Shown: positions 2,980-53,828 of the stretch, in pieces
Numbering within the stretch: position 1 is the first letter of the stretch
How the letters are laid out: each line of letters opens with the position of its first letter
IMG/VR virus record: IMGVR_UViG_2512047041_000008
Reading direction: 5' to 3' (one strand)
Source: a virus
Lineage: Duplodnaviria > Heunggongvirae > Uroviricota > Caudoviricetes
DNA length: 56,009 bases
The notes under the pieces: model-generated
The model's database searches: none
What the model saw: only the letters and a program-made list of their open reading frames with translations
Told to the model about the DNA's origin: nothing
Program-made: the position numbers and the translations under genes

Positions 2980-3021
2980 TGAACCGCCCCGGGTTTCCTG
3001 GAGAGTGTTTTATCTGTGAAC

Positions 3022-4235: not shown

Positions 4236-4289
4236 CCTGTTTACCTCTTTCTCAGGAAGTTTAGTCTCCAGGATTCCCGGGGCGGTTCA

Positions 4290-4523: not shown

Positions 4524-4750
4524 AAAATAATCTCGGTGTGAGATGCCTTACGTCTTCCAAGCCCCCTTCCTTGCCGTAAATGGAAAGATACATCTAATTA
4601 TAGAATTTATATGTTTTACCCTACGGCAGTGCTGGCCATTCAATATCCTGTGCAGTTGACGTATCAACACGGTTCAGCAACACCCGATACTTCTTCCAGG
4701 CTTCCCGCAACGAGGTTTCTTCCTCCGTTGCATATACAGCTCACCTTTTT

Positions 4751-5044
4751 TCACCCACGATTAACCAACAGCCAGACCAGCAGACACGCCACCACCGGCA
4801 CAGCAAAATCCATCAGACTTGTCACATCCCACGCGCGCGGATCAAAACCGCCCCACCACGGCATATTCATTCGCTTGCCATGCCCGAACATTTCAATCCA
4901 GCGATATTCTGCCTGGGTATGTTCACGCGCAATGAAGAACGTACAACCGGCTATCGCCCCGTAAGCCCAGTTTCCGGTAAAAAGACCAACCAGTACCTGC
5001 GCAGCCACAGCACAAAGTGCATGAAGGAAAGGTGTTATATCCAT
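4751..5044 (-). CDS. Hypothetical small membrane protein (2-3 predicted TM segments)
   Basis: 97-aa ORF with hydrophobic stretches; no recognised family. Confidence 0.45.
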   Translation of the reverse strand: MDITPFLHALCAVAAQVLVGLFTGNWAYGAIAGCTFFIAREHTQAEYRWIEMFGHGKRMNMPWWGGFDPRAWDVTSLMDFAVPVVACLLVWLLVNRG

Positions 5045-5054
5045 TACTCCTCCT

Positions 5055-5759: not shown

Positions 5760-5768
5760 TTGTCTCCC

Positions 5769-6050
5769 TCACATCCAGCCACGAAGTTGATGCTCAACAA
5801 CAATCGCGTATTTATCGAATATTGACGATTTTTTTGCATCATTAATGATGCGCACGTTTACAAAATATCCGTCCTCCTTAACACATACCGGTTCGCCATC
5901 TTCAGTCAGTTCTCCGGTTTCTTTGTACACGTTACCTATCACGTCAATAAGAATATCATCCTGCATCGACTCGTCATCATAATAGCCAATACTCTCCATA
6001 AAGGCCGAAAAGTCGGCCCTGTCTGCAAATTTGAGCGTTAAATCTTTCAT
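5769..6050 (-). CDS. Hypothetical acidic protein between stf and the S74-domain gene
   Basis: 93-aa ORF, start overlaps stf stop (coupled); no recognised family. Confidence 0.4.
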   Translation of the reverse strand: MKDLTLKFADRADFSAFMESIGYYDDESMQDDILIDVIGNVYKETGELTEDGEPVCVKEDGYFVNVRIINDAKKSSIFDKYAIVVEHQLRGWM

Positions 6051-8452
6051 TTAATACTCTCCCCCATTTGCGCATCAGTTAATTCTTTATGCCAGAGACG
6101 AAGATTTCTCAAATGGCCGAATAGATGACGAGTTCCCGATGTGGCTTGACCTCCAATTCGAATAAAGGTCCGTGTTTTTACGCCCGTCCACTCCGTTTTC
6201 ATGGTTTTAGTAGCCTCACCGTTAGAAACTACTCGTTTAGTACCATCAGAATAAATATTAAAACCACCAATGAATTTTCGAACATCAGTTCGACCAGCAA
6301 ACACACTAGAAACGTAAGTACTTGTCGACGCTTTATAAGTTTGCATATAAAGCTGACCGTAATATTTCTCAGTTGTGTTAAAAGCGTATGTAATTGACTC
6401 AATAGGTGGCACACCAGAAAAATCAAAAATACGCGGTGCTACATTAGGAGGAATATCGCCCCAATTTCTATTAACCTCGACCAGGCACGTAAGCGGTCTA
6501 TTATAGATATTATTTTCAGTTGGGATCGTCACCATATCACTGGAGCGGGTTGCGGGTACAGTTGTCGTAATAACAAAAGATGAAGCACATCCGCCGTTTT
6601 CAAATTGTGGTGTTGCAAGGTAAATATAATCTCCCGCTTCAGTTACACCACCTTTTTTCGGCGCATACTGAATCATTGCGCCAATTAAGGTTTCACCTTC
6701 AACAGCTTCTATAGTTGCCTCATAGAAAATCCACCCTGTAACCGGATCTTTAGTTGCAGTAGCTGCTATTCTATTGGCTGCTCCGCCAGTTTTTTCTATT
6801 ATCAGAGTTCCGAAAGTTAAATAAGCATCTCCTAAAAATGTATAAACCGACCCATCGTATTTTTCAAAACGCAAACGACAACGAAGACCATCAGGAGCTT
6901 TAACCCTGCATGAAACAGTGCAATACTTATTATCGCCACTAACATCAATCCCCCGGGATGCACTGCATGTATGCAGACTAAGTGCAGATGATTGTCCTGT
7001 CATATTATCTTTTGTTCGCATTTTGGCATATGAAAAACCAAATTCATCAACACCATTATTAGTTTTATCGATATTGCTGGTACTCGTCCATTCAGCGGGG
7101 ATATTGGATTTAACAAAATAGTTAGTGCGCTGTCCTTCAATCAATAAACCTTCTTTTTCAAATCGTGGCTCATCAATTTTAGCAACACTAAATACGCCTG
7201 ATTTATTGATATATGTGGCAGTTGATGCGCGTTTAAACTTTACAACCTTATCGCCAGGCATCGTTATTTCATCATCACCAATAACAATCTTTTTATATGA
7301 CGGCGAAAAGCCCGTAATCATATCCAGTGAATCGTTAAACGGTATCCACACATCGGGAAGCGGCTGCAAAACTTGTTTATACGGCTCCGCAGCCTGGCTT
7401 GCATACTCTCTGGCTGCGTCTTCACTTGCTTTTGCAGCCGTCTGGCTTGCTGCCGATGCTTTCGCTGAGTTAGCCGCCGCAGTCTCGCTCGCCTTTGCGT
7501 TGGTTTCACTGGTTTTTGCAGCTTTTTGACTGTTGGCTGATGCAGAGGCAGAAGAAGCCGCCGCACTTGCAGAACCAGCTGCGGCACTCTCGCTTTGGGC
7601 TGCTGCATCCTGACTGTTTTTCGCCGCAGTTTCACTGGCTTTGGCATTCGTTTCGCTGGTCTTCGCTGCCGTCTGGCTGGACTTTGCGTTAGTTTCACTC
7701 GTCTTCGCAGCTTTCTGGCTGTTAGCCGCAGCAGTTGCTGATCCAGTTGCTGAAGTCGCAGAACCGGCTGCCGCGCTCTCGCTTTGGGCTGCTGCAACCT
7801 GGCTGTTTTTTGCCGCAGTTTCACTGGCTTTGGCATTCGTTTCGCTGGTCTTCGCTGCCGTCTGGCTGGACTTTGCGTTGGTTTCGCTCGTCTTTGCGGC
7901 TGTCTCGCTATTTTTCGCGTTGGTTTCTGATTTTTTGGCTGCTGTCGCGGAGTTTTCTGATGCAGTCTGTGAGGTCGCTGCCGCCTGTGCACTATTAGCT
8001 GCATTCGTTTCTGAGGTTTTCGCCGCGTTCTTCGATGATGCCGCTGCAGTTTCGGATTTCTTTGCCGCCGCTGCGCTCTGAGAGGCGGCTTCGGCGTTGC
8101 GTGCCGCTTCTTCCACCATTTCCTCAAAACGACGCAATGCCTCCGGCATGACATCATCTTCCGTCATGGCACCGAGAAAATCATTCAGCGTACCTGGTCT
8201 GGAACCTTCATAGACGGTAATGGTTCCGGCATGTGAAGGCGGAAAACCTTCAACAAGCAGGATAACGCTGTACTGGCCATACTCAACATCCATGCTGTAA
8301 CGCCCGGCTTCATCCGGATTTTCAGAGGCCACCGTGTTCACCAGTACCGTGGTGCTGTTACGCTTTGCCTTCAGTTGAATAGTGCAGTTCTGTATTGGTT
8401 TTCCCGCACCATCTTTCAGCACACCTGAGATTTTTACTGCTGCCATATCCAC
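6047..8452 (-). CDS. stf: Side tail fibre protein (lambda Stf-like N-terminus, Ala/Ser/Thr-rich repeat shaft, lectin-like C-terminal domain)
   Basis: 801 aa; N-terminus MAAVKISGVLKDGAGKP matches recalled lambda Stf; internal tandem repeats. Confidence 0.75.
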   Translation of the reverse strand: MDMAAVKISGVLKDGAGKPIQNCTIQLKAKRNSTTVLVNTVASENPDEAGRYSMDVEYGQYSVILLVEGFPPSHAGTITVYEGSRPGTLNDFLGAMTEDDVMPEALRRFEEMVEEAARNAEAASQSAAAAKKSETAAASSKNAAKTSETNAANSAQAAATSQTASENSATAAKKSETNAKNSETAAKTSETNAKSSQTAAKTSETNAKASETAAKNSQVAAAQSESAAAGSATSATGSATAAANSQKAAKTSETNAKSSQTAAKTSETNAKASETAAKNSQDAAAQSESAAAGSASAAASSASASANSQKAAKTSETNAKASETAAANSAKASAASQTAAKASEDAAREYASQAAEPYKQVLQPLPDVWIPFNDSLDMITGFSPSYKKIVIGDDEITMPGDKVVKFKRASTATYINKSGVFSVAKIDEPRFEKEGLLIEGQRTNYFVKSNIPAEWTSTSNIDKTNNGVDEFGFSYAKMRTKDNMTGQSSALSLHTCSASRGIDVSGDNKYCTVSCRVKAPDGLRCRLRFEKYDGSVYTFLGDAYLTFGTLIIEKTGGAANRIAATATKDPVTGWIFYEATIEAVEGETLIGAMIQYAPKKGGVTEAGDYIYLATPQFENGGCASSFVITTTVPATRSSDMVTIPTENNIYNRPLTCLVEVNRNWGDIPPNVAPRIFDFSGVPPIESITYAFNTTEKYYGQLYMQTYKASTSTYVSSVFAGRTDVRKFIGGFNIYSDGTKRVVSNGEATKTMKTEWTGVKTRTFIRIGGQATSGTRHLFGHLRNLRLWHKELTDAQMGESIK
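7569..7946. repeat. Two tandem 189-bp (63-codon) repeat units inside stf, within a longer degenerate repeat tract
   Basis: Sequence from 7569 recurs at 7758 with near identity over about 120 bp; encodes repeated SETNAK..TAAK motifs. Confidence 0.8.
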
Positions 8453-8510
8453 TCCACAAAAAAGCCCGCCTGAACCGGCGGGCTGTCATAACACTGTGTT
8501 ACCTGGCTAA

Positions 8511-9110
8511 TCAGAACTTATAACCGACACCCACGATGAAACCGTCAGTGCGCCAGTCGCCACTGCCGGAGCCTTCATAAGCAATATCAATGGCCACGGA
8601 TTCGGTCGGGTTAAACTGCACGCCAGCTCCCCACGCCAGAGACGTGTTGCTGTGGCGATCGTCATCACTTCCGGTCAGCACATCGTGCGTTTTCCCCTTG
8701 TTGTCAGTTACGCGGAGATAATCCCCGGAGAACGTCGAAACACGGCTGTAAGCCACACCTGCCATCGCATAAGCACTGAACCATTCATTCACGCGTACAG
8801 ATGGCCCCGCCATCATGCTGAACCAGCGGTTACGCACGGAATCTTCATGCCAGCGGGTATCGCTGTAATGCGTTTTTTGCTCATCTTTGGCATTGGCATA
8901 ACTGAATGACGTCACCAGCCCCAGCGTGTCCGTAAATTCATAACGGTATTTCACGTTAATGCCCTTCAGGTCATCACTGCCTGGCATATCAGTATGGGTC
9001 TGAAGATACCCGGCGCTTAGTGTGGACTGATGCTCTGCTGCGCTCGCTGGCGTACCAGCGGCAACCAGCCAGACTACTGCGGACAGAATAACAGCACATA
9101 ATTTACGCAT
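8511..9110 (-). CDS. lom: Lom outer-membrane protein (Ail/Lom family)
   Basis: 199 aa with signal peptide and beta-barrel pattern; position after J as in lambda. Confidence 0.85.
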   Translation of the reverse strand: MRKLCAVILSAVVWLVAAGTPASAAEHQSTLSAGYLQTHTDMPGSDDLKGINVKYRYEFTDTLGLVTSFSYANAKDEQKTHYSDTRWHEDSVRNRWFSMMAGPSVRVNEWFSAYAMAGVAYSRVSTFSGDYLRVTDNKGKTHDVLTGSDDDRHSNTSLAWGAGVQFNPTESVAIDIAYEGSGSGDWRTDGFIVGVGYKF

Positions 9111-9177
9111 AATTACCTCTCGCTTTTCTGCAATAAAAAAGGCGTCATTTCTGACGCCCGTATTGGGGTTATAAAAT

Positions 9178-12100
9178 TCAGCTGATACTGATGCCTGCGG
9201 TGGCTTTCTTCATCACCACAACCAGCAAATCGCTGATACTTGCTGTGGGATACCAGTCATTTACCAGCCATGCTGACACCGAAAACTCCAGCGTCATGTG
9301 ACCGTGACCGGCAGGCATATCAATAACGCCACTGTAAATCAGCGTATTATCCAGCGCGGTACGGTTATAAATTTCAGCACCGTTTTTCCGCACTATCAGA
9401 CGGCATGAGGAGTAAATATCAGTATGCTCTCTCTCATGTTTAGCGCCGCTGAATGCCACCGCCGGAATAACAATCTGCCGGTCAAACGGCTGATCGTCAT
9501 AAATCCTGACGGTAATGGTCCCTGATGGCCACCGTTCCGGTGCACGGGAGTCCCGGGGGAAAGCTTTACCCACTGTTTTAACGAGATCGCCTTCAATCTG
9601 GTTCGCGGACAGTTTTCCCAGAACCCGGCAGTTCTCGTTAATCGTGACGTTGTTGAGCGTCCCGGAGTTCGCATTCACGTTACCGCTGATATCGGCATTT
9701 TTCGCCGTCAGCCGCCCGTCCGGTGTCAGGGAAAATGCCGGAGGATTACCGCCGCTGGTAATGGTGGGAGCCGTCAGATATTTCAGGAACACTTCGTTCA
9801 TGAATATCTGATCGCCCTGACCAACAAACATCGGCTTTGTGTTGCCATTCGCAGGATTAACCATCGCAATCCTGTCCGCCGCCAGCAGCACCTGACTCTG
9901 CATGCCGTCAGGGGTGTTCTCAATACCGGCACCAATACCCGCGATATAAAGGCGTCCGTCCTGCATCTGCTGCAGCTTCACAGCCCACATGCTGTTCAGG
10001 TTATTATTTGTATCAACCTGAACCTTCTGTATCTGCTGAATTGCCGCACTCTGGTCTTCCAGTTTCTTATTGACGGTCTGCGTGATTTCATTGCTGACAT
10101 CCGTAATGGACGTCCTGATTTCAGCCAGGTCAGGCGCAAGCTGACCGTTATCAATCTGCGTCCACAGCTCCTGAGCCAGATGGCTTTTCCCTATCTCGCC
10201 TTTGAAAAAATCCAGATAGCCGGATGCATCATCACTCGGCTGGCCAACAGCCTCCACAAATGCCGATTTGCCAACGGTGTTCACACTGCGGATGTAAAAA
10301 TAATAATCATGGCCCGGTTTGATATTGATACTGGCAGCTATCCAGTACAGCGCCGTGCCAAGATAGCGGGCTGTGGTTTCAACCTGCCTGATATCCGCAA
10401 TCCGCTTTTCCGAGAACCAGAACTCAAACTGTACCGTCGGATCATAAACGGCAAGATGGGGCGTGGCGGTTATCTGAAAATAGCCCGGCGTCAGCTCAAT
10501 CCGCGACGGCGCTGCCGGTGCGGCAATACGGAACGATACCGATGCCGGATCGCCCTGCTGCCCCCAGGCATTTGCCGCCCGGACTGTCAGCCTGTAGTTT
10601 CCCAGCGCCAGTTGCGTGAAGCGGTATGTGGTTTCCGTCGTCCGGGCCGTGCTGACCAGCCGCTCACTGCCGTCATCCGCTGCCACGGTCAGGCGAAGCA
10701 GGAAGCTCACGCCCTTCACCACCTTCGGTGTGTCCCATCGCGCCAGCACCTGATATTCCCCGCTGTCTGCAGTGACTTCTGCGGTCAGGTGCTGCACCGC
10801 TGGCGGCGTGACACCATTCACCGTGCCACTCTGTTCGCCGTCAAAGTGCGCCCCGTTATCCACGATGGCCTCTTTTTCCGGCACATGCTGCACGGCGGTG
10901 ATGGCATACGTGCCGTCGTCGTTCTCACGGATACTCACGCAGCGGAACAGTCGCTGGCGCAGCGTCGGCAGCTTCAGCCCCCATACGCTGTATTCAGCAA
11001 CACCGTCAGGAACACGGCTCACTTTTACCTTCACGCCGTCGGTGACGGACTGAACCTCCACGCTGACCGGATTGCCACTTCCGTCAACCAGGCTTATCAG
11101 CGTGGTACCGGAGGATGGCAGCGTGATTTCACGGTCGAGCGTCAGCGTCCGGGTCTGGCTGTTCACCGCCAGCACGCGACCACCGGTGCTGATACCGGCA
11201 TAGTCATCATCGCAGATTTCAATGACATCGCCCGGCACATGGCGAAGCCCTTCTGCGCCCACGCTGAAATCCACGGTCTGCGTTTCCAGCAGTTCCGTTT
11301 TAATCAGCCACAGCCCGGCGCGGTGTGCCTGCCCCCGGCTGGTACAGCCAAAGGCATCCATCTTCGTGACATTACGACCGTAACGGGCAATGGCCTGCGT
11401 ATCTTCAACAAGCTCTGTCGCCGTCTCCCAGCCGTTGTCCGGGTCAATCCAGTTCACCTCAACGGCATTATGGCGGTCCTTCAGGGCGCTGAAGCTGTAG
11501 CGGAACGGCGCGCCATCATCCGGCATCACCACATTACTGCGGTTATAGGTCCACACCTTATCCGACTGTCGGTCCTGCACGAACGTCAGCGTCTGCCCGT
11601 TCCATACCGGCATACAGCGCATCGCCGAGCAGAAATCACTGAGCACATCCCACGCCTTGCGCTGTGTGGTCAGGTACGCATTACAGGTGATGCGCGGCTC
11701 CGTGCCGCCAAAGCCGTCCGGCACTGACTGGTCGCAGTACTGGCCGATGACATACAGCGCCCATTTGTCCACATCCGCCGCACCAAGACGTTTCCCCATG
11801 CCGTAGCGCGGGTGGGTCAGCATATCCCACAGACACCAGGCCATGTTGTTGCTGTATACTGGTTTTAACGTTCCGTCCCAGATACCGCTGTATTGTCGCG
11901 TCTGCGGGTTATAGTTCGACGGCACCTGCAGAATGCGCCCGCGAAGATGATAATTACGGCTCACCTGCTGGCTGCCGAACTGCTCCGAGTCCACCTGTAC
12001 GCCGACCAGTGCCGTGTTCGGGTAGCACTGTTTCACATCGATGATCTCGGTGTATGACGACCAGAGCGTTTTGTTCTGCAGCTGGTCTGTGGTGCTGTCC

Positions 12101-12657
12101 GGCGTCATCCTGCGCATCCGGATATTGAACGGGCGCGGCGGCAGGTTATCCACCACCACCGAGGCCAGATACTGCGAGGTGGTTTTGCCCTTAATGGTGA
12201 TGTCTTTTTCCGTCACCCAGCCACCGTTACGCTGTATCTGAACCAGCAGGCGGACTTCCGACGGATTCCTGTCTCCCTTTGAGGTGGTTTCCACCAGTGC
12301 CTGTACACCGAAGGTAAAGCGCAGACGGTCGATGTTTGCCGACGTGATGGTCCGGGTGATCGGCGTTTCATATTTCACTTCCGTACCGAGCACCGTCTCG
12401 GAACCGGAGGATTCAAATCCCTCCGGCGGTGACTGCTCCTGCTCACCTGCCCGGAACACCACCGTGACGCCGGAGATATTGGTATTCCCCTCACTGTCCA
12501 GCACCGGCGTACTGTTCAGCAGCACGCTTTTTAATCCATCCACCGGACCTTCAATCGGCCCTTCGCTGATGGCATCAATCGCACTCAACAGCTGCGTGGA
12601 TTTCAGGTTATCTTTCGCTTCGCGCGGGGTATGCCCCTTACTGCTGCCTGTACCCAT
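9178..12657 (-). CDS. J: Tail tip / host specificity protein J
   Basis: 1159 aa; position and size as lambda J (1132 aa). Confidence 0.9.
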
Positions 12658-12717
12658 TCGTCATGCTCCATAAACGACAAAACCGCCCGGAGGCGGTTTC
12701 ACATAAAACATTTTGCA

Positions 12718-13389
12718 TCAGCGACCAATCACCACAACCTGACCACCGTCCCCTTCGTCTGCCGTGCTGATCTCCTGAGAAACCACCCGCGACCCCACAC
12801 GCATTTCACCGTACAGAACAGGCAGAACATTGCCCTGAGCAACCATGTTATCCAGTGAGGAAAAATAGGTGTTCTGTTTGCCGTTATCCGTTGTCTGTGT
12901 ACGGGGAGTTCTGGCTTTCGGTGCCAGCATCTGCGCCACACCACCGAGCACCATACTGGCACCGAGAGAAAACAGGATGCCGGTCATACCACCGGCCCCA
13001 ATGGCTGCCCCCCATGCTGCAAGGGTGGCTCCGGCAGTAAAGAATGATCCGGCAATGGCGGCAGCTCCCAGGACAATCTGGAATACACCACCTGACTTGG
13101 CCCCGGCGACTCTGGGAACAATATGAATCACAGCGCCATCAGGCAGAGTCTCATGTAACTGCGCCGTTAATCCGGACGTGCTGACGTCCCGCCCGGCAAT
13201 CCGTACCTGATACCAGCCGTCGCTCAGTTTCTGACGAAACGCCGGGAGCTGTGTGGCCAGTGCGCGGATGGCTTCAGCCCCCGTTTTCACACGAAGGTCG
13301 ATGCGGCGGCCAAATCGTTGCAAATCCCCGTAAAGGCAGATGCGTGCCATTCCCGGTGACGCCAGAGGGAGTGTGTGCGTCGCTGCCAT
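12718..13389 (-). CDS. I: Tail assembly protein I
   Basis: 223 aa, same length and position as lambda I. Confidence 0.85.
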   Translation of the reverse strand: MAATHTLPLASPGMARICLYGDLQRFGRRIDLRVKTGAEAIRALATQLPAFRQKLSDGWYQVRIAGRDVSTSGLTAQLHETLPDGAVIHIVPRVAGAKSGGVFQIVLGAAAIAGSFFTAGATLAAWGAAIGAGGMTGILFSLGASMVLGGVAQMLAPKARTPRTQTTDNGKQNTYFSSLDNMVAQGNVLPVLYGEMRVGSRVVSQEISTADEGDGGQVVVIGR

Positions 13390-14030
13390 TTGTCGGTATA
13401 CCTCTCTCGTTTGCTCAGTTGTTCAGGAATATGGTGCAGCAGCTCGCCGTCGCCGCAGTAAATTGCGGCATGATTCGGCACCGATGAACCAAAGCAGCAC
13501 AGCAGCACGTCGCCAGGCTGCGCCTCTGTCAGTGCGACACGGTAAAAACCAGTCGCCTCCATATTGCCAAGATAGAGATTCTGACCGTTACGCCACCAGT
13601 CATCCCCGCGATGAAAATCCGGCATCTCAATCCCCGCCAGATGATAAGCATCCCGGAACAGCGTGTAACAGTCCGTCACCCCGTGCTCAAAGCGACGCCC
13701 GGTAAGATGTGGCACACAGCGGAACTTGTGAATCGCCCCCCGGCAGACCAGCCACCACGGCAAATCACTCTGCACCTGCAGCCGCCGGTCAGCCTCACTC
13801 AGCCAGGGCAGACCACCGGGATGACTGTGGACCAGTGCCACAATCTCACCCTGCATCTCTGCCTGCAGCCAGTCCTCCGGAGCCATCCGGAAATAATCCT
13901 CCGGCTCACCGGAAATATTCACGCAGGGAAAATATCTTTCCCCCTCCGGCGCTCTCACCACGAAGCCGCACGACTCCGCTGGCGCACATCGCAGGGCGTG
14001 CGCCAGAATCGCTGATTCTGTCTCTGTCAT
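13287..14030 (-). CDS. K: Tail tip assembly protein K (JAB/MPN plus NlpC/P60-like)
   Basis: ORF 13287..14072; start placed at the MTETES ATG (14028-14030), which overlaps the L stop; HSH motif present; a later start giving 199 aa is also possible. Confidence 0.75.
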   Translation of the reverse strand: MTETESAILAHALRCAPAESCGFVVRAPEGERYFPCVNISGEPEDYFRMAPEDWLQAEMQGEIVALVHSHPGGLPWLSEADRRLQVQSDLPWWLVCRGAIHKFRCVPHLTGRRFEHGVTDCYTLFRDAYHLAGIEMPDFHRGDDWWRNGQNLYLGNMEATGFYRVALTEAQPGDVLLCCFGSSVPNHAAIYCGDGELLHHIPEQLSKRERYTDKWQRRTHSLWRHREWHASAFTGICNDLAAASTFV

Positions 14031-14034
14031 GGGA

Positions 14035-14733
14035 TTACTGCGAAAGTTTGTTAATGGAAAGGAAGCCGCCAAAGTTGCCGACGTTATTGCGAAACTTACA
14101 GCCGCTCAGGCATTTGCTGCATTTATCCTTCGTGATATCGGACGTCGGCTGGTCATATTCATCCGCGACCGCCGGACCGCTATAACCGCACTCATCACCG
14201 CGATAGGTCCAGGTGCAGGTGTTGGCCAGCATGATGCGCCCCGGAAAAACAGCACCATCCGTTTCCGTCGGCGTGGACAACACAAAGGAGGCACTGACCG
14301 CGCTCAGTTCGCTGCACTGCTCGACGCGCCAGCGGCTGATCACCTCCTGCTCCGGATCGGCATCGCTGTTTCCGTTGACGAAATTCACCGCATCCAGAAA
14401 ACGGGCGTAAACCTTACGCCTGACCACCGTTCCGCCGACCAGACTCTGCAGATCTTCCACCATCCCGGTGACCATACCGTACAGGTTAGAAACCGTCAGC
14501 GTGGGGCGCGTACTGGTGCCTTTGCCATTCAGTTCAAAACCACTCCCCTGAATGGGATACGGCTGATACTGTCGCCCCTGCCAGGTGACCGGCTCACCTT
14601 TTTCGTTCTGCTCATTACAGAAAAAATAACGTTCTCCACCGACCTCTGTCAGGTCGATTTCCCAGAGCACCACGCTGGCCGACTGCTCCGCACGGGTGCA
14701 TTCATTCAGTGTTTCCTGCCGGATATCCTGCAT
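14035..14733 (-). CDS. L: Minor tail protein L
   Basis: 232 aa, as lambda L. Confidence 0.85.
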   Translation of the reverse strand: MQDIRQETLNECTRAEQSASVVLWEIDLTEVGGERYFFCNEQNEKGEPVTWQGRQYQPYPIQGSGFELNGKGTSTRPTLTVSNLYGMVTGMVEDLQSLVGGTVVRRKVYARFLDAVNFVNGNSDADPEQEVISRWRVEQCSELSAVSASFVLSTPTETDGAVFPGRIMLANTCTWTYRGDECGYSGPAVADEYDQPTSDITKDKCSKCLSGCKFRNNVGNFGGFLSINKLSQ

Positions 14734-39502: not shown

Positions 39503-39545
39503 TGAGGTGTACTGGCAATAGCGGACACAACCATTTGTTCTTTTT

Positions 39546-40364
39546 TTAAGCAGCCATCTGATGATATTTTTCCCTGAAGGCTGCCGGGGAGATATTCCCC
39601 AGACGAGAGTGACGACGCTGACGATTGTAGAAAATCTCAATGTATTCCCGTATTACTGAGATGGCTTCATCCCGGTTATTAAAACGATAGTGGCTCAGGC
39701 TCTCATTTTTCAGCGTTCCCCAGAAGCTTTCCATCGGAGCGTTGTCGTAACAGTTACCTTTACGCGACATTGATGTTTTCAGACCAAACTGCTCCTGTAT
39801 GACCCGGTAATCGTATGCGCAGTACTGTGAACCTCGATCAGAGTGGTGGATTAGCCCGGCAGGTGGGCGCTGGCTCCTGAGCGCCATAAACAGGGCTTTA
39901 CCTGTCAGCTCTTTTGTCATGCGCTCTCCCATGGCGTAGCCGACAATTTCGCACGTATAAACATCTTTGATGCCAGCGAGGTACAACCATCCCTCCTGTG
40001 TGGCAACATACGTCAGGTCCGCCACCCAGACCTGATTTGGTGCTGTAGGAGTGAACGTCTGGTTCAGCAGATTTGGCGCAACTGGCAGATTGTGGTTCGG
40101 GTTCGTAGTCGCTCTGAACTTGCGTTTCTGCTTACAGCGTAGCCTTAGCTCCTTACGAAGACGTGCCAGTCGGTCACGACCAACGATGATGCCATTCTCT
40201 GCCAGCTCCGTCTGGAGCCGCCGGGTTCCATATGTTTCGCGAGTGCGGATATGTGCCACCTTAATCTCCAGTTTTAGCCGCTCATCACTTTGTTTTCTGT
40301 CTGAGGGTTCATGCTGTACCCAGTTGTAATAACCGCTCCTGGATACACCAAATACCTGACACAT
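39546..40364 (-). CDS. IS600 transposase OrfB
   Basis: 272 aa DDE. Confidence 0.85.
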   Translation of the reverse strand: MCQVFGVSRSGYYNWVQHEPSDRKQSDERLKLEIKVAHIRTRETYGTRRLQTELAENGIIVGRDRLARLRKELRLRCKQKRKFRATTNPNHNLPVAPNLLNQTFTPTAPNQVWVADLTYVATQEGWLYLAGIKDVYTCEIVGYAMGERMTKELTGKALFMALRSQRPPAGLIHHSDRGSQYCAYDYRVIQEQFGLKTSMSRKGNCYDNAPMESFWGTLKNESLSHYRFNNRDEAISVIREYIEIFYNRQRRHSRLGNISPAAFREKYHQMAA

Positions 40365-40399
40365 CGCTTCAATGGGAAATTGTTGTCGCCATTGTTCGA

Positions 40400-40702
40400 T
40401 TAACGCGTATTTTTCAGCGACTCCTGTGCAAAATACGCTGTTGCTTTTTTTAATATATCTCGCTCAAGGCGAGCTTCATTTAACGCCTTACGCAGTTGCA
40501 GAATTTCAGATTCCAGTTCAGCCACCGTGCGGGAACCAGGAGTACCGAGCCCTTTTCTGGCGGCGGTAACCCATTGTCCTAAAGTGCCTTCAGGAAGAGA
40601 TAATCGGGAAGCGCCTTCGCTGATCGAAAGTTGATTTTCAAGAACCGTTCTGACAGCTTCGGCTTTGAACTCTTTAGAGTAACGTTGGTTTTTTCTGCTC
40701 AT
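40400..40702 (-). CDS. IS600 transposase OrfA
   Basis: 100 aa HTH, MSRKNQRYSKEFK... Confidence 0.85.
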   Translation of the reverse strand: MSRKNQRYSKEFKAEAVRTVLENQLSISEGASRLSLPEGTLGQWVTAARKGLGTPGSRTVAELESEILQLRKALNEARLERDILKKATAYFAQESLKNTR

Positions 40703-40766
40703 TATTAGCTCCTTCTGATGCCATTCTATTTCAGGAAGGAGTGTCCGTTAAACTCAGGCTACCTCA

Positions 40767-42661: not shown

Positions 42662-42817
42662 TTACTCCTCAGGTTCGTAAGCTGTGAAGACAGCGACCTC
42701 CGTCTGGCCGGTTCGGATTCGTACCTCGCAGAGGTCTTTCCTCGTTACCAGTGCCGTCACTATGACGGTTAAACAGATGACGATCAGGGCGATTAACATC
42801 GCCTTTTGCTGCTTCAT
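42662..42817 (-). CDS. hokD: Hok-family toxin
   Basis: 51 aa translated by hand from the minus strand, MKQQKAMLIALIVICLTVIVTALVTRKDLCEVRIRTGQTEVAVFTAYEPEE. Confidence 0.85.
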   Translation of the reverse strand: MKQQKAMLIALIVICLTVIVTALVTRKDLCEVRIRTGQTEVAVFTAYEPEE

Positions 42818-42888
42818 AGCCTGCTTCTCCTGTCAACGCAAAGCAGAAGTGTCACCTTCGGTGCGAAACAGAGATGTCATGCTTTGGT

Positions 42889-43176
42889 TCAGAGAATGCG
42901 TTTGACCGCCTCGCTATATACTTCCGAGCGTTCTCTTTTCCCAACAGAAATCACGAAAACGACAACTTTCTCGTCTATAACCTGGTATACAAGGCGATAG
43001 CCTGAAGACCGGAGCTTAATCTTGTAACAATCAGGCATACCACGGAGCTTGTTTGCTTCAATCCGGGGTGACTCAAGTACTTCAACCAGCTTCTTTTTCA
43101 ACTGTTCACGTACCGTCGAGCCCAGCTTTCGCCATTCCTTTAGTGCCCGCTCGTCAAAATCCAGAAAATACGCCAT
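42889..43176 (-). CDS. relE: RelE mRNA interferase toxin
   Basis: 95 aa, matches recalled RelE. Confidence 0.9.
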   Translation of the reverse strand: MAYFLDFDERALKEWRKLGSTVREQLKKKLVEVLESPRIEANKLRGMPDCYKIKLRSSGYRLVYQVIDEKVVVFVISVGKRERSEVYSEAVKRIL

Positions 43177-43415
43177 CAGAGTTCATCCAGCGTCACACGT
43201 ACTGGCTTAGGATTACGAAGCCGTTCTTTCACTATCTCCACAAGTTCAGCATCTTCATCACTCAGGAGTGTCTGTTTGAACGGCAAGCGTTCATTGTCAG
43301 CGATATACTCGAGCATGAGACGAAGCGCTTCAGAAGGAGTTACACCCATTTTTTCAAGCGCGGCGTAAGAACGCGCTTTAAGTTCATCGTCAATACGCAG
43401 GTTAATGCTACCCAT
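43176..43415 (-). CDS. relB: RelB antitoxin
   Basis: 79 aa, matches recalled RelB; overlaps relE start. Confidence 0.9.
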   Translation of the reverse strand: MGSINLRIDDELKARSYAALEKMGVTPSEALRLMLEYIADNERLPFKQTLLSDEDAELVEIVKERLRNPKPVRVTLDEL

Positions 43416-43419
43416 GTCT

Positions 43420-43456
43420 TACACCTCTTGTAATTACAAATGTCATTACAAGTATC
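43420..43456 (-). promoter_or_regulatory. relBE operator/promoter region (relO repeats)
   Basis: CTTGTAATGACATTTGTAATTACAAG repeats immediately upstream of the relB ATG. Confidence 0.55.
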
Positions 43457-43745
43457 GCACTACAACATGCTTAGGGCAAGTCACGAAGGAAGTCAGAAAG
43501 TAGTCGTAAGAACGGTGATCACTGTCCGCTTTGTGCCAGGAGCAGCCATTGCTAAGTCCATCCTGTATTGTGCAGGTCAGCTCGTTTTTAAAGAGTCCGG
43601 CCATCATCTTACTGGTACAGACACCATATACTTTGTGACGGTCAGGCTACATATGCACAACTCAACTTATTCATCTATTTTTTGCTTTAGCATGTCAGTG
43701 TTGCTTTCTCGTCGGCGGGTGAGCGGTGACCTGAACTGTCGATAA
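43440..43745 (+). CDS. ydfV: YdfV-like hypothetical protein
   Basis: 101-aa ORF divergent from relB, as in Qin. Confidence 0.5.
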   Translation: MSLQVSHYNMLRASHEGSQKVVVRTVITVRFVPGAAIAKSILYCAGQLVFKESGHHLTGTDTIYFVTVRLHMHNSTYSSIFCFSMSVLLSRRRVSGDLNCR

Positions 43746-43947: not shown

Positions 43948-44280
43948 ATGTCTGTCACAATTCAGGGAAATACCTCAACCGTTATTTCAAACAACTCCGC
44001 CCCGGAAGGAACATCAGAAATAGCCAAAATCACAAGACAAATTCAGGTGCTGACTGAAAAGCTTGGGAAAATCTCATCGGAAGAGGGGATGACGACACAG
44101 CAGAAAAAAGAAATGGCTGCATTGGTACAGAAGCAAATTGAAAGCCTCTGGGCTCAACTGGAGCAGTTGTTAAGGCAGCAGGCAGAGAAAAAGAATGAAG
44201 ACGCGACAGTTCAGCCTGATAAAAAAGAAGAGAAAAAAGACGATACAAATACCGCTGGCACCATTGATATTTACGTCTAA
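43948..44280 (+). CDS. flxA: FlxA-like protein
   Basis: 110 aa, coiled coil, KE-rich C-terminus. Confidence 0.75.
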   Translation: MSVTIQGNTSTVISNNSAPEGTSEIAKITRQIQVLTEKLGKISSEEGMTTQQKKEMAALVQKQIESLWAQLEQLLRQQAEKKNEDATVQPDKKEEKKDDTNTAGTIDIYV

Positions 44281-44323
44281 GTGAACCGCCCCGGGTTTCC
44301 TGGAGAGTGTTTTATCTGTGAAC

Positions 44324-45214
44324 TCAGGCTGCCAGATCATCGTTTCCGATGGAAGCATAATAAGCTTTTTCTGCTTCTGCCGGAGGAGTATGGCCCAGCC
44401 TTTCCAGCAATCGTCGATTGTTATACCAGTCCACCCACGTGAGTGTGGCCAGTTCCACTTCTGCACGGTTTTTCCAGCTCTTACGGTGTATTACCTCCGC
44501 TTTGTAAAGACCATTGATGCTCTCCGCCATCGCGTTGTCATACGAGTCGCCTGTACTTCCTGTTGATGCCAGTAATCCGGCTTCCTTAAGCCGCTGTGTG
44601 TAGGCCAGCGATACATACTGAGAACCTTTATCACTGTGATGGACCGTGCCGGACGGTCGACGGGCCCATAACGCCTGCTCCAGTGCATCCAGCACGAATG
44701 TCGTTTCCATGGACGATGAGACCCGCCACCCCACGATGTATCCGGCAAACACATCAATGATGAACGCCACATAGACGAAGCCCCGCCATGTGCTGACGTA
44801 AGTAAAATCAGCCACCCACAGCTGGTCAGGTCGTTCTGCCACGAACTGACGGTTTACGCGGTCGCCTGCGGCAACGGCTTTCCGGCTGATGGTCGTACGG
44901 ACCTTTTTACCCCGGAGAACACCGGCAAGTCCCATAACCGCCATGAGACGTGCCACAGTGCATCTGGCCACTCTGATACCTTCCCGTAACAACTGACGCC
45001 AGACTTTACGCACACCGTATACCTTGTGATTTTCATCGTATACGCGCTGTATCTCTTTCTTCAGCCAGTCATCGCGCTGCGCACGGGCACTGCGTTTATC
45101 CGGATGATGTCGCTGTTGCTGACAGTGGTAATACGTTGACGGGGCAATATGCAGTTCGCTGCATAGCGGTCCGACCCCGTACTGCTCACGCAGCTTATCC
45201 AGCAGTGGCATCAT
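44324..45214 (-). CDS. IS629 transposase OrfB
   Basis: Identical to the copy 1 OrfB. Confidence 0.85.
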
Positions 45215-45537
45215 TTTTTCCAGAGGCGGTCGAACTCCGCCTTCGCAAAATAAGCGGAAGCCTGGCGAAGGATATCGTTACTGCGGCGCAGTTCACGATT
45301 TTCACGTTCCAGCTCTTTCAGACGCTGACGTTCAGCGGTGGTGAGCCCTCCATCACCGCCCCCGGTATCCCGCTCATGCTGGCGAACCCAGACACGCAGA
45401 GTCTCCGGCGTACAGCCAATCTTTGGAGCAATGGAACAAATTGTCGCCCATTGTGAGTCATATTCGCTCTGACTTTCCAGAACCATACGGACTGCCCGTT
45501 GACGGACTTCGGGGGAAAAACGAGTATTTTTAGTCAT
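45211..45537 (-). CDS. IS629 transposase OrfA
   Basis: Identical to the copy 1 OrfA. Confidence 0.85.
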
Positions 45538-46029
45538 CCTGTTTACCTCTTTCTCAGGAAGTTTAGTCTCCAGGATTCCCGGGGCGGTTCAAAGTGACAG
45601 CCGTATTGTGGCCCTCATCGGGCCACTTTTCGCCATCAGCCTTTTCTTTAAAGACATATTATCTTTGTATCATTTCTGATAGTTAACATTACAAGATATA
45701 AGTAATGGACGCACTCCCAATTAGTCTATTTAAATCGCCACGAGTTTAACTGACAACCCATGATCAATTATGAATTGCAACTATTTCTGTAGTCACTTTT
45801 GTGGGGACAGTCCACAAAACTGCCAACTTCCGCTTCTTGCTCTTAGCGGACATTAGCATAGGCTATTTACCATAACGCCTCATTACGCGCACCGCCCAGA
45901 CTGACTCAGCGCGTTTCTGGCATATCCCCGGTAAAACAAGTAACAAACCACCCGAAAATGAACACCAGAAACGCGACTTAAGAATCTACCCTATGAATGG
46001 ATATGCACTCAACCGAATCGATCTTGGTT

Positions 46030-46125
46030 TCAATCTTTTTTATCGGGATCAGGCTTCTTTTTAGGTAACTTCGGGGGCTTAACTTGCTGATGACTTTGCG
46101 TTCGGCGCGTAAGCCAGGGATGGTC
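46030..46125 (-). pseudogene. C-terminal tail of a DDE transposase gene, split from its body by IS600 copy 2
   Basis: Frame continues ...YYVKPKAD-HPWLTRRTQSHQQVKPPKLPKKKPDPDKKD* after removing the IS and one GTC copy. Confidence 0.6.
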
Positions 46126-46168
46126 TGAGGTGTACTGGCAATAGCGGACACAACCATTTGTTCTTTTT

Positions 46169-46987
46169 TTAAGCAGCCATCTGATGATATTTTTCCCTGA
46201 AGGCTGCCGGGGAGATATTCCCCAGACGAGAGTGACGACGCTGACGATTGTAGAAAATCTCAATGTATTCCCGTATTACTGAGATGGCTTCATCCCGGTT
46301 ATTAAAACGATAGTGGCTCAGGCTCTCATTTTTCAGCGTTCCCCAGAAGCTTTCCATCGGAGCGTTGTCGTAACAGTTACCTTTACGCGACATTGATGTT
46401 TTCAGACCAAACTGCTCCTGTATGACCCGGTAATCGTATGCGCAGTACTGTGAACCTCGATCAGAGTGGTGGATTAGCCCGGCAGGTGGGCGCTGGCTCC
46501 TGAGCGCCATAAACAGGGCTTTACCTGTCAGCTCTTTTGTCATGCGCTCTCCCATGGCGTAGCCGACAATTTCGCACGTATAAACATCTTTGATGCCAGC
46601 GAGGTACAACCATCCCTCCTGTGTGGCAACATACGTCAGGTCCGCCACCCAGACCTGATTTGGTGCTGTAGGAGTGAACGTCTGGTTCAGCAGATTTGGC
46701 GCAACTGGCAGATTGTGGTTCGGGTTCGTAGTCGCTCTGAACTTGCGTTTCTGCTTACAGCGTAGCCTTAGCTCCTTACGAAGACGTGCCAGTCGGTCAC
46801 GACCAACGATGATGCCATTCTCTGCCAGCTCCGTCTGGAGCCGCCGGGTTCCATATGTTTCGCGAGTGCGGATATGTGCCACCTTAATCTCCAGTTTTAG
46901 CCGCTCATCACTTTGTTTTCTGTCTGAGGGTTCATGCTGTACCCAGTTGTAATAACCGCTCCTGGATACACCAAATACCTGACACAT
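46169..46987 (-). CDS. IS600 transposase OrfB
   Basis: Identical to the copy 1 OrfB. Confidence 0.85.
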   Translation of the reverse strand: MCQVFGVSRSGYYNWVQHEPSDRKQSDERLKLEIKVAHIRTRETYGTRRLQTELAENGIIVGRDRLARLRKELRLRCKQKRKFRATTNPNHNLPVAPNLLNQTFTPTAPNQVWVADLTYVATQEGWLYLAGIKDVYTCEIVGYAMGERMTKELTGKALFMALRSQRPPAGLIHHSDRGSQYCAYDYRVIQEQFGLKTSMSRKGNCYDNAPMESFWGTLKNESLSHYRFNNRDEAISVIREYIEIFYNRQRRHSRLGNISPAAFREKYHQMAA

Positions 46988-47022
46988 CGCTTCAATGGGA
47001 AATTGTTGTCGCCATTGTTCGA

Positions 47023-47325
47023 TTAACGCGTATTTTTCAGCGACTCCTGTGCAAAATACGCTGTTGCTTTTTTTAATATATCTCGCTCAAGGCGAGCTTC
47101 ATTTAACGCCTTACGCAGTTGCAGAATTTCAGATTCCAGTTCAGCCACCGTGCGGGAACCAGGAGTACCGAGCCCTTTTCTGGCGGCGGTAACCCATTGT
47201 CCTAAAGTGCCTTCAGGAAGAGATAATCGGGAAGCGCCTTCGCTGATCGAAAGTTGATTTTCAAGAACCGTTCTGACAGCTTCGGCTTTGAACTCTTTAG
47301 AGTAACGTTGGTTTTTTCTGCTCAT
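47023..47325 (-). CDS. IS600 transposase OrfA
   Basis: Identical to the copy 1 OrfA. Confidence 0.85.
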   Translation of the reverse strand: MSRKNQRYSKEFKAEAVRTVLENQLSISEGASRLSLPEGTLGQWVTAARKGLGTPGSRTVAELESEILQLRKALNEARLERDILKKATAYFAQESLKNTR

Positions 47326-47389
47326 TATTAGCTCCTTCTGATGCCATTCTATTTCAGGAAGGAGTGTCCGTTAAACTCAGGCTACCTCA

Positions 47390-48610
47390 GTCAGCTTTAG
47401 GTTTAACATAGTATTTTGAGCGTAAATCAATACGGGCATTATCCACTCGTTCATGGACACTCTTTTCATCATCCAGTGGTATAGGCTCCGGGCCATCAAC
47501 ATACTTTTCCCAGCCCAGCGCTTTCCCGTCATACAGAACGTTAATTTCACCGTCAAAGTTCTCGCATACAGTAACAACCGAATGCCTAAGTCGATATCCC
47601 CGACCCTCACTGCGTACCTGAAACGCACTGCTTTTGTACTGGAAAGTGAGATTTTTAGACAGAACGCGCTTCGCCTGTAGGCTGAAGATATAACCCAGTT
47701 CCTCTTCAGAATGGTGCACATCAAGATGAGCATTATCAGTAGTACGAGGCGACGTAGCGAACCGGTTGTTATAGGCTTCAATAAAGGTCGGCAACCATGC
47801 ATTTGCTGTTTCAATATCACTGATATTCTGAAGCCGCATTTCTTTGACCAGCCTGTCCTGTAGTGTCTGATTGGCGCGCTCTACCCGCCCTTTTGCCTGC
47901 GGGCTGTTGGCATGGATTGGCTCGATGCCCAGTGTCTTTATCGCACGAGTGAACTGGGTCAGCTCACCTTCCCGCTCTGGGTTATTTACCCTGAATATAC
48001 TGTGTCTATCAGAGTAGAGAGCGAGCGGTACGCCATGATCATTAAGGTAACCCCGGAGGGTTTCCATGTAAGCCCGGGTTGTTTCAGCAGGCACAAAACG
48101 CAACGCCATCAACGCACTGGTGGCATCATCAATGAAAACGATCAGTGTACATCTGGGGCCTCGATTTTCAAACCAGTCATGAGGTGAGCCATCAATCTGG
48201 ATCAGTTCACCGTAAGATGGTCGTCGCATGCGGCGTTGATATATACGGGCAATTTTACGACGGCGTTCACGCCATAACCCCTCTTCTATCATCCACTTTC
48301 TGAGAGTTTCAACGGATAAAGATAAACCGTGTATCTCGCGCAATTTTTCGCACGCAAACGTAGGTCCAAAATCAGCGTAACGGCCTTTGAGGAGTGAAAT
48401 TACTGTTGCTCTGAATTCAGTAGAAAAGGAATTATTAGGACGCTTTCCACGTCGGTGGGAAACCAGACCAGAAGGCCCTTCATTTCTATACCGTTGCACC
48501 AGACGTTTAACCTGCCGAATAGAAATGCCAATGCGTGCCGCAGCTTGTTCCTGAATAATCTGAAGTCGGTGGAGTTCCTTATGACTCATCGTAACAGTCT
48601 CTTTGATCAT
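47390..48610 (-). pseudogene. DDE transposase (HTH plus rve-type core; IS481/ISNCY-like, family uncertain), 3' end truncated by IS600
   Basis: 407-aa ORF with D...D...E spacing (IQIDGS, YSDRHS, RVERAN); its stop codon is formed by the IS600 terminus. Confidence 0.65.
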
Positions 48611-48944
48611 GAAAAATCCCCCAGAGAATTGTCTGGGGACATTTTAGAATGGTTCAAAGGGGACATTACAGCTTGGTGTTAACAATAGCCTGCTTCTCCG
48701 TGCCTTTCGGCACGTAAGAGGCTAACCTACATGTGTCTAGCATGAAATTGGCCTCAGATTAATGTTAAGCGTCTTGCAGGACGCGTAATGTTAACTGGGG
48801 CTTTTCTCTATCTGCCGTTGGTGTCCATGCCCGAGGCAGATAGCCTCAAGCACCCGCAGTCATTCTACTTAACTAAGATTTCCCCGCAAACCGTTTTTGT
48901 CCAGCACAGTAAATATCCAACTAAACCAATGGAGTTCGCTGTAT

Positions 48945-52452: not shown

Positions 52453-52511
52453 AGCCCAGAATGCTTCAGTGAACCGCCCCGGGTTTCCTGGAGAGTGTTT
52501 TATCTGTGAAC

Positions 52512-53399
52512 TCAGGCTGCCAGATCATTGTTTCCGATGGAAGCATAATAAGCTTTTTCTGCTTCTGCCGGAGGAGTATGGCCCAGCCTTCCCAGTAATC
52601 GTCGATTGTTATACCAGTCCACCCACGTTAGTGTGGCCAGTTCCACTTCTGCACGGTTTTTCCAGCTCTTACGGTGTATTACCTCCGCTTTGTAAAGACC
52701 ATTGATGCTCTCAGCCATCGCGTTGTCATACGAGTCGCCTGTACTTCCTGTTGATGCCAGTAATCCGGCTTCTTTTAGTCGCTCCGTATAGGCCAGTGAC
52801 ACATACTGAGAGCCTTTATCGCTGTGATGGATGGTGCCAGACGGACGACGGGCCCACAACGCCTGCTCCAGCGCATCCAGCACGAATGTCGTTTCCATAG
52901 ACGATGAGACCCGCCACCCCACGATGTATCCAGCAAACACATCAATGATAAACGCCACATAGACGAAGCCCTGCCATGTGCTGACGTAAGTAAAATCAGC
53001 CACCCACAGCTGGTCAGGACGTTCTGCCACGAACTGACGGTTTACGCGGTCACCTGTGGCAACGGTTTTCCGGCTGACGGTAGTGCGGACCTTTTTACCC
53101 CGGAGAACACCGGCAAGTCCCATAACCGCCATGAGGCGCGCCACTGTACATCTGGCCACCCTGATTCCTTCCCGTAACAACTGACGCCAGACTTTACGCA
53201 CACCGTACACCTGATGATTTTCATCGTATACGCGCTGTATCTCTCTCTTCAGCCAGTCATCGCGCTGCGCACGGGTACAGCGTTTATCAGGATGATGCCG
53301 CTGCTGCTGACAGTGGTAATACGTTGACGGGGCAATATGCAGTTCACTGCATACAGGTCCGACCCCGTACTGCTCACGCAGCTTATCCAGCAGTGGCAT
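52512..53399 (-). CDS. IS629-like transposase OrfB (variant)
   Basis: 295 aa, DDE. Confidence 0.8.
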   Translation of the reverse strand: MPLLDKLREQYGVGPVCSELHIAPSTYYHCQQQRHHPDKRCTRAQRDDWLKREIQRVYDENHQVYGVRKVWRQLLREGIRVARCTVARLMAVMGLAGVLRGKKVRTTVSRKTVATGDRVNRQFVAERPDQLWVADFTYVSTWQGFVYVAFIIDVFAGYIVGWRVSSSMETTFVLDALEQALWARRPSGTIHHSDKGSQYVSLAYTERLKEAGLLASTGSTGDSYDNAMAESINGLYKAEVIHRKSWKNRAEVELATLTWVDWYNNRRLLGRLGHTPPAEAEKAYYASIGNNDLAA

Positions 53400-53725
53400 T
53401 ATTTTTTCCAGAGGCGGTCGAACTCCGCCTTCGCAAAATAAGCGGAAGCCTGGCGAAGGATATCGTTACTGCGGCGCAGTTCACGATTTTCACGTTCCAG
53501 CTCTTTCAGACGCTGACGTTCAGCGGTGGTGAGCCCACCATCACCGCCCCCGGTATCCCGCTCATGCTGGCGAACCCAGACACGCAGAGTCTCTGGCGTA
53601 CAGCCAGTCTTTGGAGCAATGGAACAAATTGCCGCCCATTGTGAGTCATATTCGTCCTGACTTTCCAGAACCATACGAACTGCCCGTTGACGGACTTCGG
53701 GGGAAAAACGTGTATTTTTAGTCAT
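53399..53725 (-). CDS. IS629-like transposase OrfA (variant)
   Basis: 108 aa, a few substitutions relative to copies 1 and 2. Confidence 0.8.
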
Positions 53726-53828
53726 CCTGTTTACCTCTTTCTCAGGAAGTTTAGTCTCCAGGATTCCCGGGGCGGTTCAGAACGGTCATCACGAAATCAC
53801 ATCCACCAGCAGGACGTGTGACCATCTA

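Follow-up and report, generated by a model that had tools for sequence, protein, structure and literature searches.

The 56,009-nucleotide stretch analysed here (the window; IMG/VR virus record IMGVR_UViG_2512047041_000008, from the Caudoviricetes) very probably carries a copy of the insertion sequence (IS) IS600 at codon 407 of the transposase gene (tnp) of an ISEsa1-type element, the host element being a 3.3-kb transposon with the layout IRL-tnp-cargo-relB-relE-IRR, where IRL and IRR are the left and right terminal inverted repeats, inserted in the hok locus of a Qin-like prophage. Observed directly are both ends of this transposon, its target-site duplication, the unoccupied site and the recurrence of independent insertions at one and the same position in many different hok loci. 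We also lean, by a little, towards a broader proposal, that the ISEsa1-type elements form a family of hok-hunting transposons, in which a fixed tnp arm and a fixed relBE-IRR arm would enclose exchangeable cargo, such as phage genes, nickel and chromate resistance genes or a cation transporter, and insertion would follow recognition of the hok leader, at a fixed distance from it. The relBEF operon of Escherichia coli K-12 would then be a fossil of such an event.

IS600, a member of the IS3 family, lies on the minus strand at 46126..47389 (1264 bp; ends TGAGGTGTACTGG... and ...CAGGCTACCTCA). Plasmid-borne copies annotated 'IS3-like element IS600' are 100-99.6% identical to it across the full 1264 bp, and its length, this near-identity to reference copies, the orfA/orfB organisation and a 3-bp duplication, GTC at 46123..46125 and 47390..47392, are all as expected of IS600. 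On the host side, a 407-aa minus-strand open reading frame (ORF) at 47387..48610 terminates in a TGA codon (47387..47389) that consists of the final three bases of IS600, and deletion of IS600 and one GTC in silico produces an uninterrupted 437-aa ORF ending at 46033. These results bear out the preliminary description of this DNA, which had proposed an IS within the transposase gene of another DDE element, a stop codon supplied by the IS600 terminus, and a final 30 codons resuming in frame with a GTC duplication. The pieces are as follows.

47390..48610, minus strand: host tnp, first 407 codons, with the helix-turn-helix (HTH) domains, D140, D201 and E244, and Q251 at E+7
47023..47325, minus strand: IS600 orfA, 100 aa
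46169..46987, minus strand: IS600 orfB, 272 aa
46033..46125, minus strand: host tnp, last 30 codons and stop (HPWLTRRTQ...KKD*), the in-frame continuation past IS600

The restored reading frame is not a product of chance, because the unit, once freed of IS600, of a copy of IS629, and of one GTC and one AAG, is 3274 bp long and aligns to E. coli K-12 DH5alpha with 4 mismatches and 0 gaps. IS600 splits a conserved, invariant D-HPW motif near the transposase C-terminus. A search of 5,426 complete E. coli genomes found the IS600/tnp junction in none of them, which together with the load of IS600 and IS629 suggests a host of the Shigella type. The nested IS is genuine and unremarkable, such nesting being routine in Shigella-like genomes. 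A second IS600 in the window, at 39503..40766, is 100% identical to the copy at 46126..47389.

The host transposase had been left without a family beyond the guess 'IS481/ISNCY-like'. The ISNCY half of that guess stands, since the restored protein scores 456 bits against NCBIfam model NF033594 ('ISNCY family transposase', ISNCY_2; cutoff 250), whereas the IS481 half is rejected, with 125.7 bits for model NF033577 against a cutoff of 224. Pfam matches comprise N-terminal HTH_32/HTH_29/HTH_28 and an rve_3 core, and a PDB sequence search returned only an uninformative, marginal match to the retroviral-integrase core (E = 0.0099). In the segment RVE(244)RANQTLQ(251), a Gln seven residues after the catalytic Glu is invariant in four aligned relatives; Gln rather than Lys or Arg at E+7 is a proposed signature of the IS1202 family (PMC10132070). 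The reconstructed ORF encodes a DDE transposase, and a protein of 400-500 aa, an N-terminal HTH, a DDE core, Gln at E+7 and imperfect terminal repeats of 24-26 bp with 5'-TGT...ACA-3' termini are together what is expected of the IS1202 family. By megablast against plasmids, host tnp DNA is 98-99% identical to copies annotated 'IS1202-like element ISEsa1 family transposase', and the restored protein equals the 446-aa plasmid transposase WP_004196353.1, save that nine residues of the HTH region (QESINRHIT) are deleted. Judged by sequence, the host formerly described as unidentified can be named: it is an ISEsa1-type element and belongs to the IS1202 family (formerly ISNCY). Its K-12 orthologue is the Qin relic whose annotations read ydfW and ISNCY pseudogene. 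The name ISEsa1 is assigned from the PGAP names of 98-100% identical copies and from agreement in length (1606 versus 1609 bp).

The left end of the element was mapped using 79 loci encoding transposase relatives, one genome per species, and the right end by searching downstream for a second copy of the 15 bases that precede IRL. IRR and this second copy were found together at 42816..42856, about 5.85 kb from IRL and past flxA, ydfV, relB and relE. IRL begins TGTTAACACC... and IRR finishes ...GCGTTGACA, giving 5'-TGT...ACA-3' termini, and on either strand of the 56-kb window just two 26-mers match IRL at 19 or more of 26 positions, namely IRL itself and IRR. The features of the transposon and its target, from left end to right, are given below, with the cargo gene order as found.

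48684..48855, minus strand: orphaned hok mRNA leader/sok region, Rfam RF01794 match
48685..48699, minus strand: leader-side copy of the target-site duplication, GGAGAAGCAGGCTAT, directly abutting IRL
48659..48684, minus strand: IRL, TGTTAACACCAAGCTGTAATGTCCCC, a sharp similarity boundary in more than 20 independent contexts
48618..48639, minus strand: hairpin resembling a terminator, with ATTTTTC after it, ending 8 nt upstream of the tnp ATG
48549..48559, minus strand: site of a 27-bp in-frame deletion between ATTAYTCAGGA direct repeats, which removes QESINRHIT (N-terminal HTH)
45827..45855, minus strand: imperfect palindrome TAATGTCCGC-N12-GCGGAAG at the end of the transposase arm
44282..45591, minus strand: IS629, 1310 bp, with an AAG duplication at 44279..44281 and 45592..45594
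43948..44280, plus strand: flxA, variable cargo
43440..43745, plus strand: ydfV, variable cargo
43176..43415, minus strand: relB, conserved right arm
42889..43176, minus strand: relE, conserved right arm
42831..42856, minus strand: IRR, GGTGACACTTCTGCTTTGCGTTGACA, ending ACA-3', a 19/26 match to IRL and identical in all plasmid copies
42816..42830, minus strand: hokD-side copy of the duplication, GGAGAAGCAGGCTAT, 15 bp, directly abutting IRR
42662..42817, minus strand: hokD ORF (MKQQKAML...), 51 aa, the same DNA as annotated hokD of K-12 DH5alpha

The host had been presumed to be a simple IS with terminal repeats and a target duplication in the flanks of tnp, within 45600..48800. That presumption failed; the search there yielded the imperfect palindrome alone, with no match to IRL and no duplication. 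No terminal repeats came to light near tnp, since the 1.6-kb 'IS' represents no more than the left arm of a bigger transposon. An apparent downstream boundary (...TAATGTCCGCTAAGAGC) does lie 1606 bp from IRL, but the sequence there is unlike IRL, and depending on the copy it is the point where ISEsa2 (IS110-like) or an IS30-type element is inserted or where the cargo changes. The palindrome, which sits roughly where the 1609-bp 'ISEsa1' of ISfinder must end, is possibly a vestigial inner IRR motif. The end of the transposase arm (...GCTAAGAGC) was seen repeatedly as an insertion point for ISEsa2 or an IS30-family element (locus L005, 4033 onward; L007, 4033 onward; the IncHI2 plasmid locus L088). 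Two parts are conserved across versions of the element, the 1.6-kb transposase arm and an arm of about 715 bp comprising relBE and IRR; the ORFs of the 3.3-kb unit are tnp, flxA, ydfV, relB and relE only. Given that relB, relE, ydfV and flxA lie between IRL and IRR, and that an IS strictly defined has no passenger genes, the element is a transposon or 'tIS' and not an insertion sequence in the strict sense. As a conjecture, the hairpin at 48618..48639 may insulate tnp from the hok promoter reading into IRL.

Immediately beyond IRL, 172 bases match RF01794 over its full length with 104 bits (gathering score 59; E = 9e-24), and the final AUG of the model coincides with the IRL junction. The 15-bp duplication spans the hokD Shine-Dalgarno sequence through the AT of the ATG, after which G-AAG-CAG... 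of the hokD ORF follows. In unoccupied sites the leader/sok structure and the 51-aa HokD ORF are contiguous, as befits a hok locus. A reconstructed empty-site query of 532 nt, made of hokD, one repeat copy and the leader, was found contiguous in many E. coli genomes at 98.9-99.2% identity, and in the alignment to E. coli CP53 a single copy of the 15-mer stands exactly where both window junctions meet. A contiguous hokD site with one 15-mer is direct evidence of insertion. An alternative junction, 45596..45826 joined to 48685..48930, gave no contiguous match as an empty site, its left piece being internal cargo. The idea that the hok leader is part of the element was likewise ruled out, as transposase arms 100% identical over 1606 bp adjoin hok leaders that are just 77-88% alike. 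By separating the leader from the hokD ORF, the insertion gave rise to the K-12 'relBEF' arrangement, in which hokD has no leader of its own. The K-12 DH5alpha RefSeq record has no feature annotated at the orphan leader (L083, 3501..3670). Integration of relBE into hokD was reported earlier by Ramisetty & Santhosh 2016, according to the statement in PMC6379469 that cites them.

In K-12 DH5alpha the orthologue is in the Qin prophage, with flxA on one side and a region lacking annotation on the other, and its own annotations are ydfW and an 'ISNCY family transposase' pseudogene. The K-12 tnp itself (L083, 2114..3406) reads as a single unbroken 437-aa ORF, though annotated as a 49-aa 'YdfW' and a partial ISNCY pseudogene. 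Plasmid copies and a Shigella flexneri chromosome carry a 3301-bp unit that does not have the 27-bp deletion and differs at 5-8 positions, and overall the unit is 99.8% identical between an E. coli chromosome and plasmids of three genera. The deletion is common to the window copy and K-12, and therefore predates the Shigella-type IS insertions. Of these, the IS629 copy entered the cargo right at the flxA stop codon, which is retained; excision of this IS629 in silico restores colinearity with K-12. Other IS629 copies in the window are at 2980..4289 (100% identical) and 52470..53779 (95.5%). With the 27-bp deletion, IS600 in tnp and IS629 in the cargo, the window copy is an immobile, dead relic, and the nested IS is in itself of little significance.

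The same transposon recurs at other hok loci, with duplications of 13-16 bp in seven other insertions compared to 15 bp in the window. The following have been delimited.

pYK16-mcr-10 (Enterobacter): 3.3-kb unit in a hok locus, duplication GAGAAGAAGGCCA
Salmonella IncI plasmid: 3.3-kb unit in a hok locus, duplication TGGAGGGGCTATGAT
E. coli IncK2/Z plasmid: 3.3-kb unit in a hok locus, duplication TGGAGGGGCTGCGATG
pEnt261 (IncF): 3.3-kb unit in a hok locus, duplication GGAGAAGAAGGCCAT
Phytobacter IncF plasmid NZ_AP018757.1 (L087), 1516..14358: 12,843 bp, in a hok locus next to psiA, duplication GGAGAAGTCAGCTAT
IncHI2 plasmid (L088): 6,093 bp, duplication GGAGAAGAAGGCCAT, cargo of cytochrome b, a CDF transporter and a nested ISEsa2
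Metagenome contig OHRJ01000039.1 (L092), 3305..10999: 7,694 bp, 16-bp duplication GGAGATGTATGGGTCC

The relBE genes and IRR are common to the 3.3-kb, 6.1-kb and 12.8-kb versions, and in the largest, between the same IRL and IRR, the cargo includes nickel (ncrYCBA) and chromate (chrBA) resistance genes, among others. In L092, the duplication comprises 4 nt of the hok Shine-Dalgarno sequence (GGAG) and the terminus of another IS; 12 metagenome loci have this junction type. Seven further loci have Rfam sok matches that reach the gathering score and stop precisely at IRL, one of these loci (L014) being the Qin site again; two more loci have such matches below that score. Clustering of IRL flanks placed 16 of the 22 clusters at hok leaders, with one more (L018) at the same position in the opposite orientation. 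Exact-pattern scans for IRR in metagenomes and viral contigs gave 151 loci with 145 readable right junctions. The hokD junction of Qin accounts for 106 of these, some 14 further types lie at the Shine-Dalgarno sequence or ATG of other Hok genes, and the relE 3' end precedes IRR in 140 of the 151 matches. A copy at L037 was not counted as having an ldr/rdl target, its rdlD match scoring 40.8 bits (gathering score 50) and its flank being hok-like by eye.

Several unusual arrangements were also seen. In four loci, L125 among them, IRR runs straight into the middle of the hokD ORF (CTGCGAGGTACGAATC...), an arrangement that apparently arose by deletion from the Qin junction. In Leclercia sp. (L019, about 2340..2430), GAAGGCTATG comes after the relE 3' end and IRR and leads into the IRL of a 70%-identical relative, which looks like a tandem second insertion into a site regenerated by duplication. 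A more distant relative, in Hahella sp., takes the form of a clean 1449-bp IS in about 10 copies, two of them in tandem at L024, with a transposase of 62% amino acid identity, homologous ends (TGTTAGCCCAAAGCTGTAATGTCCCC / GGGGACATTTTAGAATTGGGTTGACA) and duplications of 15-17 bp. In Kluyvera sp., an ISEsa1-type copy whose flank is not hok has its IRL end overlapped by an Rfam isrO match (L015, 2337..2450, minus strand; 58.8 bits). IsrO is an Hfq-binding small RNA of Salmonella, and the overlap suggests that the sequence used to define the isrO family may have lain beside, or included, an ISEsa1-type element.

In every hok event, the duplication starts 0-1 nt after a hairpin, GCC-N4-GGCA(A/C), that precedes the hok Shine-Dalgarno sequence. 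The hokE-like locus L011 has an earlier ATG, and there the duplication extends 9 nt into the ORF. As the duplications of L092 and L011 both start right after the hairpin, position seems to be determined by leader DNA situated upstream of the duplicated bases. We propose that the transposase, or a factor it recruits, would recognise hok leader DNA (the GCC-N4-GGCA hairpin) just upstream of the Shine-Dalgarno sequence and cut the two strands just 3' of the hairpin with a stagger of about 15 bp, usually with tnp co-directional with hok. In the Qin-like hok/sok-type locus, insertion duplicated the 15 bp from the Shine-Dalgarno sequence to the AT of the start codon and left the leader/sok region upstream of tnp and the hokD ORF downstream of relBE. 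Such a 'hok hunter' would be carried by conjugative plasmids and prophages and, if the proposal is right, would put its own type II module in place and at once uncouple the type I addiction module already resident.

How firmly this can be held depends on the alternatives. The host could be a simple 1.6-kb IS, ISEsa1 as catalogued, with ends flanking tnp within about 45800..48700. The sharp boundary ...GCTAAGAGC at 1606 bp from IRL in many copies speaks for this, as do the published length and the 'no TSD' (target-site duplication) entry (PMC10132070). Yet the boundary marks the insertion point of ISEsa2 or IS30-type elements or a change of cargo, resembles IRL neither by eye nor as a third 26-mer at 19/26 or better in the window, and has no duplication that could be found, whereas IRR and a duplication lie past relBE in every complete copy examined, with 13-16 bp duplicated at each plasmid site. 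A simple IS is already contradicted by these data and is very unlikely. An origin of the 15-bp repeats in recombination between hok paralogues, or capture of relBE by some non-transpositional route with the transposase arm as a passenger, is less probable still. It is true that hok loci are multi-copy and similar, and that relBE has been treated as a self-contained, horizontally moving operon, according to PMC5120126, citing Ramisetty & Santhosh 2016. However, the repeats differ from site to site and always abut the TGT.../...ACA inverted repeats, which are homologous to those of the clean Hahella IS with its long duplications, and the near-identity of the unit across an E. coli chromosome and plasmids of three genera is at odds with such an origin. 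One-ended mobilisation with surrogate ends, in the manner of ISEcp1, was dropped in view of a fixed, well-matched IRR at every complete copy.

The hok association might instead reflect selection or ascertainment, with random insertions of which only those that disarm hok or lie in plasmid leading regions persist. IS150 and IS186 are said, from work of Pedersen and Gerdes in 1999, to lie near K-12 hok loci. More generally, IS elements are common near hok (bioRxiv 10.1101/2025.08.07.668861). Selection, however, predicts a scatter over promoter, mok and hok, whereas at least 15 distinct events start within 1 nt of the same hairpin and nearly all are in one orientation; the duplication keeps the hok Shine-Dalgarno sequence and ATG intact, so that the toxin gene is not destroyed; and in L092 the position is still kept even though a different IS had previously taken the place of the hok ORF side. 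We therefore give this explanation very little credence. Nevertheless, a number of observations weigh against hok hunting as a general rule. Five of the 22 IRL-flank clusters are not hok, and 8 of the 26 junction types in the IRR scans are non-hok, being unrelated sequence or deletions, which means that the specificity is not absolute or that those copies have been rearranged. The orientation of L018 is a further exception, and the Hahella relative has no hok preference, so that the specificity is not subgroup-wide. The case for hok targeting is drawn from natural insertions, and the equation of catalogued ISEsa1 with the left arm comes from comparing the published 1609 bp with the 1606-bp arm. 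Priority is also uncertain, in that Ramisetty & Santhosh 2016 may have noticed the repeats too.

Much of this background was already known, including IS600, the IS1202 family with its three duplication classes and its dif-targeting subgroup, the ISEsa1 entry, K-12 relBEF, and the presence of relBE at hokD. In the searchable literature, which does not cover the IS catalogues, we found no mention of ISEsa1 as an arm of a relBE transposon, no description of its true ends and 15-bp duplication, and no link between ISEsa1 or ISNCY elements and hok, whether as a preference or as a named transposon; a hok-hunting transposon appears to be undescribed. The larger element resolves why ISEsa1 shows neither duplication nor target in the IS1202-family literature, and hok loci would be a second target specificity in that family besides dif sites. 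It also offers a mechanism for the entry of relBE into the Qin prophage and into many IncF, IncI, IncK and IncHI2 plasmids, with metal-resistance cargo moving on the same vehicle. These results suggest that annotation pipelines should cease to name the left arm a complete IS.

Known systems close to this one include the K-12 Qin relBEF locus (relB-relE-hokD), which is orthologous and has the same 27-bp deletion but is without IS600 and IS629, and whose record treats the parts as unrelated genes. ISEsa1 shares the transposase (98-100% DNA identity to plasmid copies; about 439-446 aa) and the 5'-TGT left end. As catalogued by Harmer, Pong & Hall 2023, it is 1609 bp long with 15/22 terminal repeats, no duplication and no target (PMC10132070). 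The mobile unit described here, by contrast, runs from IRL to relBE-IRR and measures 3.3-12.8 kb; its repeats match at 19/26, its duplications are 13-16 bp long and its target is hok. What the catalogue gives as the right boundary is the site of ISEsa2/IS30-type insertions and cargo junctions, and the position of the right end beyond relBE probably explains the published absence of a duplication.

Within the IS1202 family, the ISTde1 subgroup generates direct repeats of 15-17 bp (bioRxiv 10.1101/2022.12.17.520857), and the duplications in the window (15 bp) and in Hahella fall in this long class. The TGT termini, a conserved inner repeat motif near position 20 and a single DDE transposase with an N-terminal HTH are further points in common; ISTde1-type IS, however, are 1.3-1.7 kb and cargo-free with no reported target preference, which is how the Hahella IS behaves. 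The ISAjo2/ISAba32 subgroup, or 'dif/pdif hunters', offers a parallel in behaviour, being of the same family, inserting with an orientation bias and keeping a constant short spacing to a small conserved site that is common on plasmids. In dif sites, ISAjo2-subgroup members insert at 5 bp from the XerC arm (PMC10132070), and the subgroup makes 5-6 bp duplications beside that arm of dif-like sites as opposed to about 15 bp beside the hok leader hairpin; its transposases have only about 41% identity to the one described here (PMC10132070, Table 7). More distantly, Tn7 (attTn7) and the 'res hunters' Tn5053/Tn402 similarly exploit conserved, widespread safe sites on plasmids and chromosomes. Unlike them, the 3.3-kb unit has no accessory genes of the TnsA/C/D or TniB/Q kind, and none of its ORFs encodes a TnsA/TnsC/TnsD(E)-type protein.

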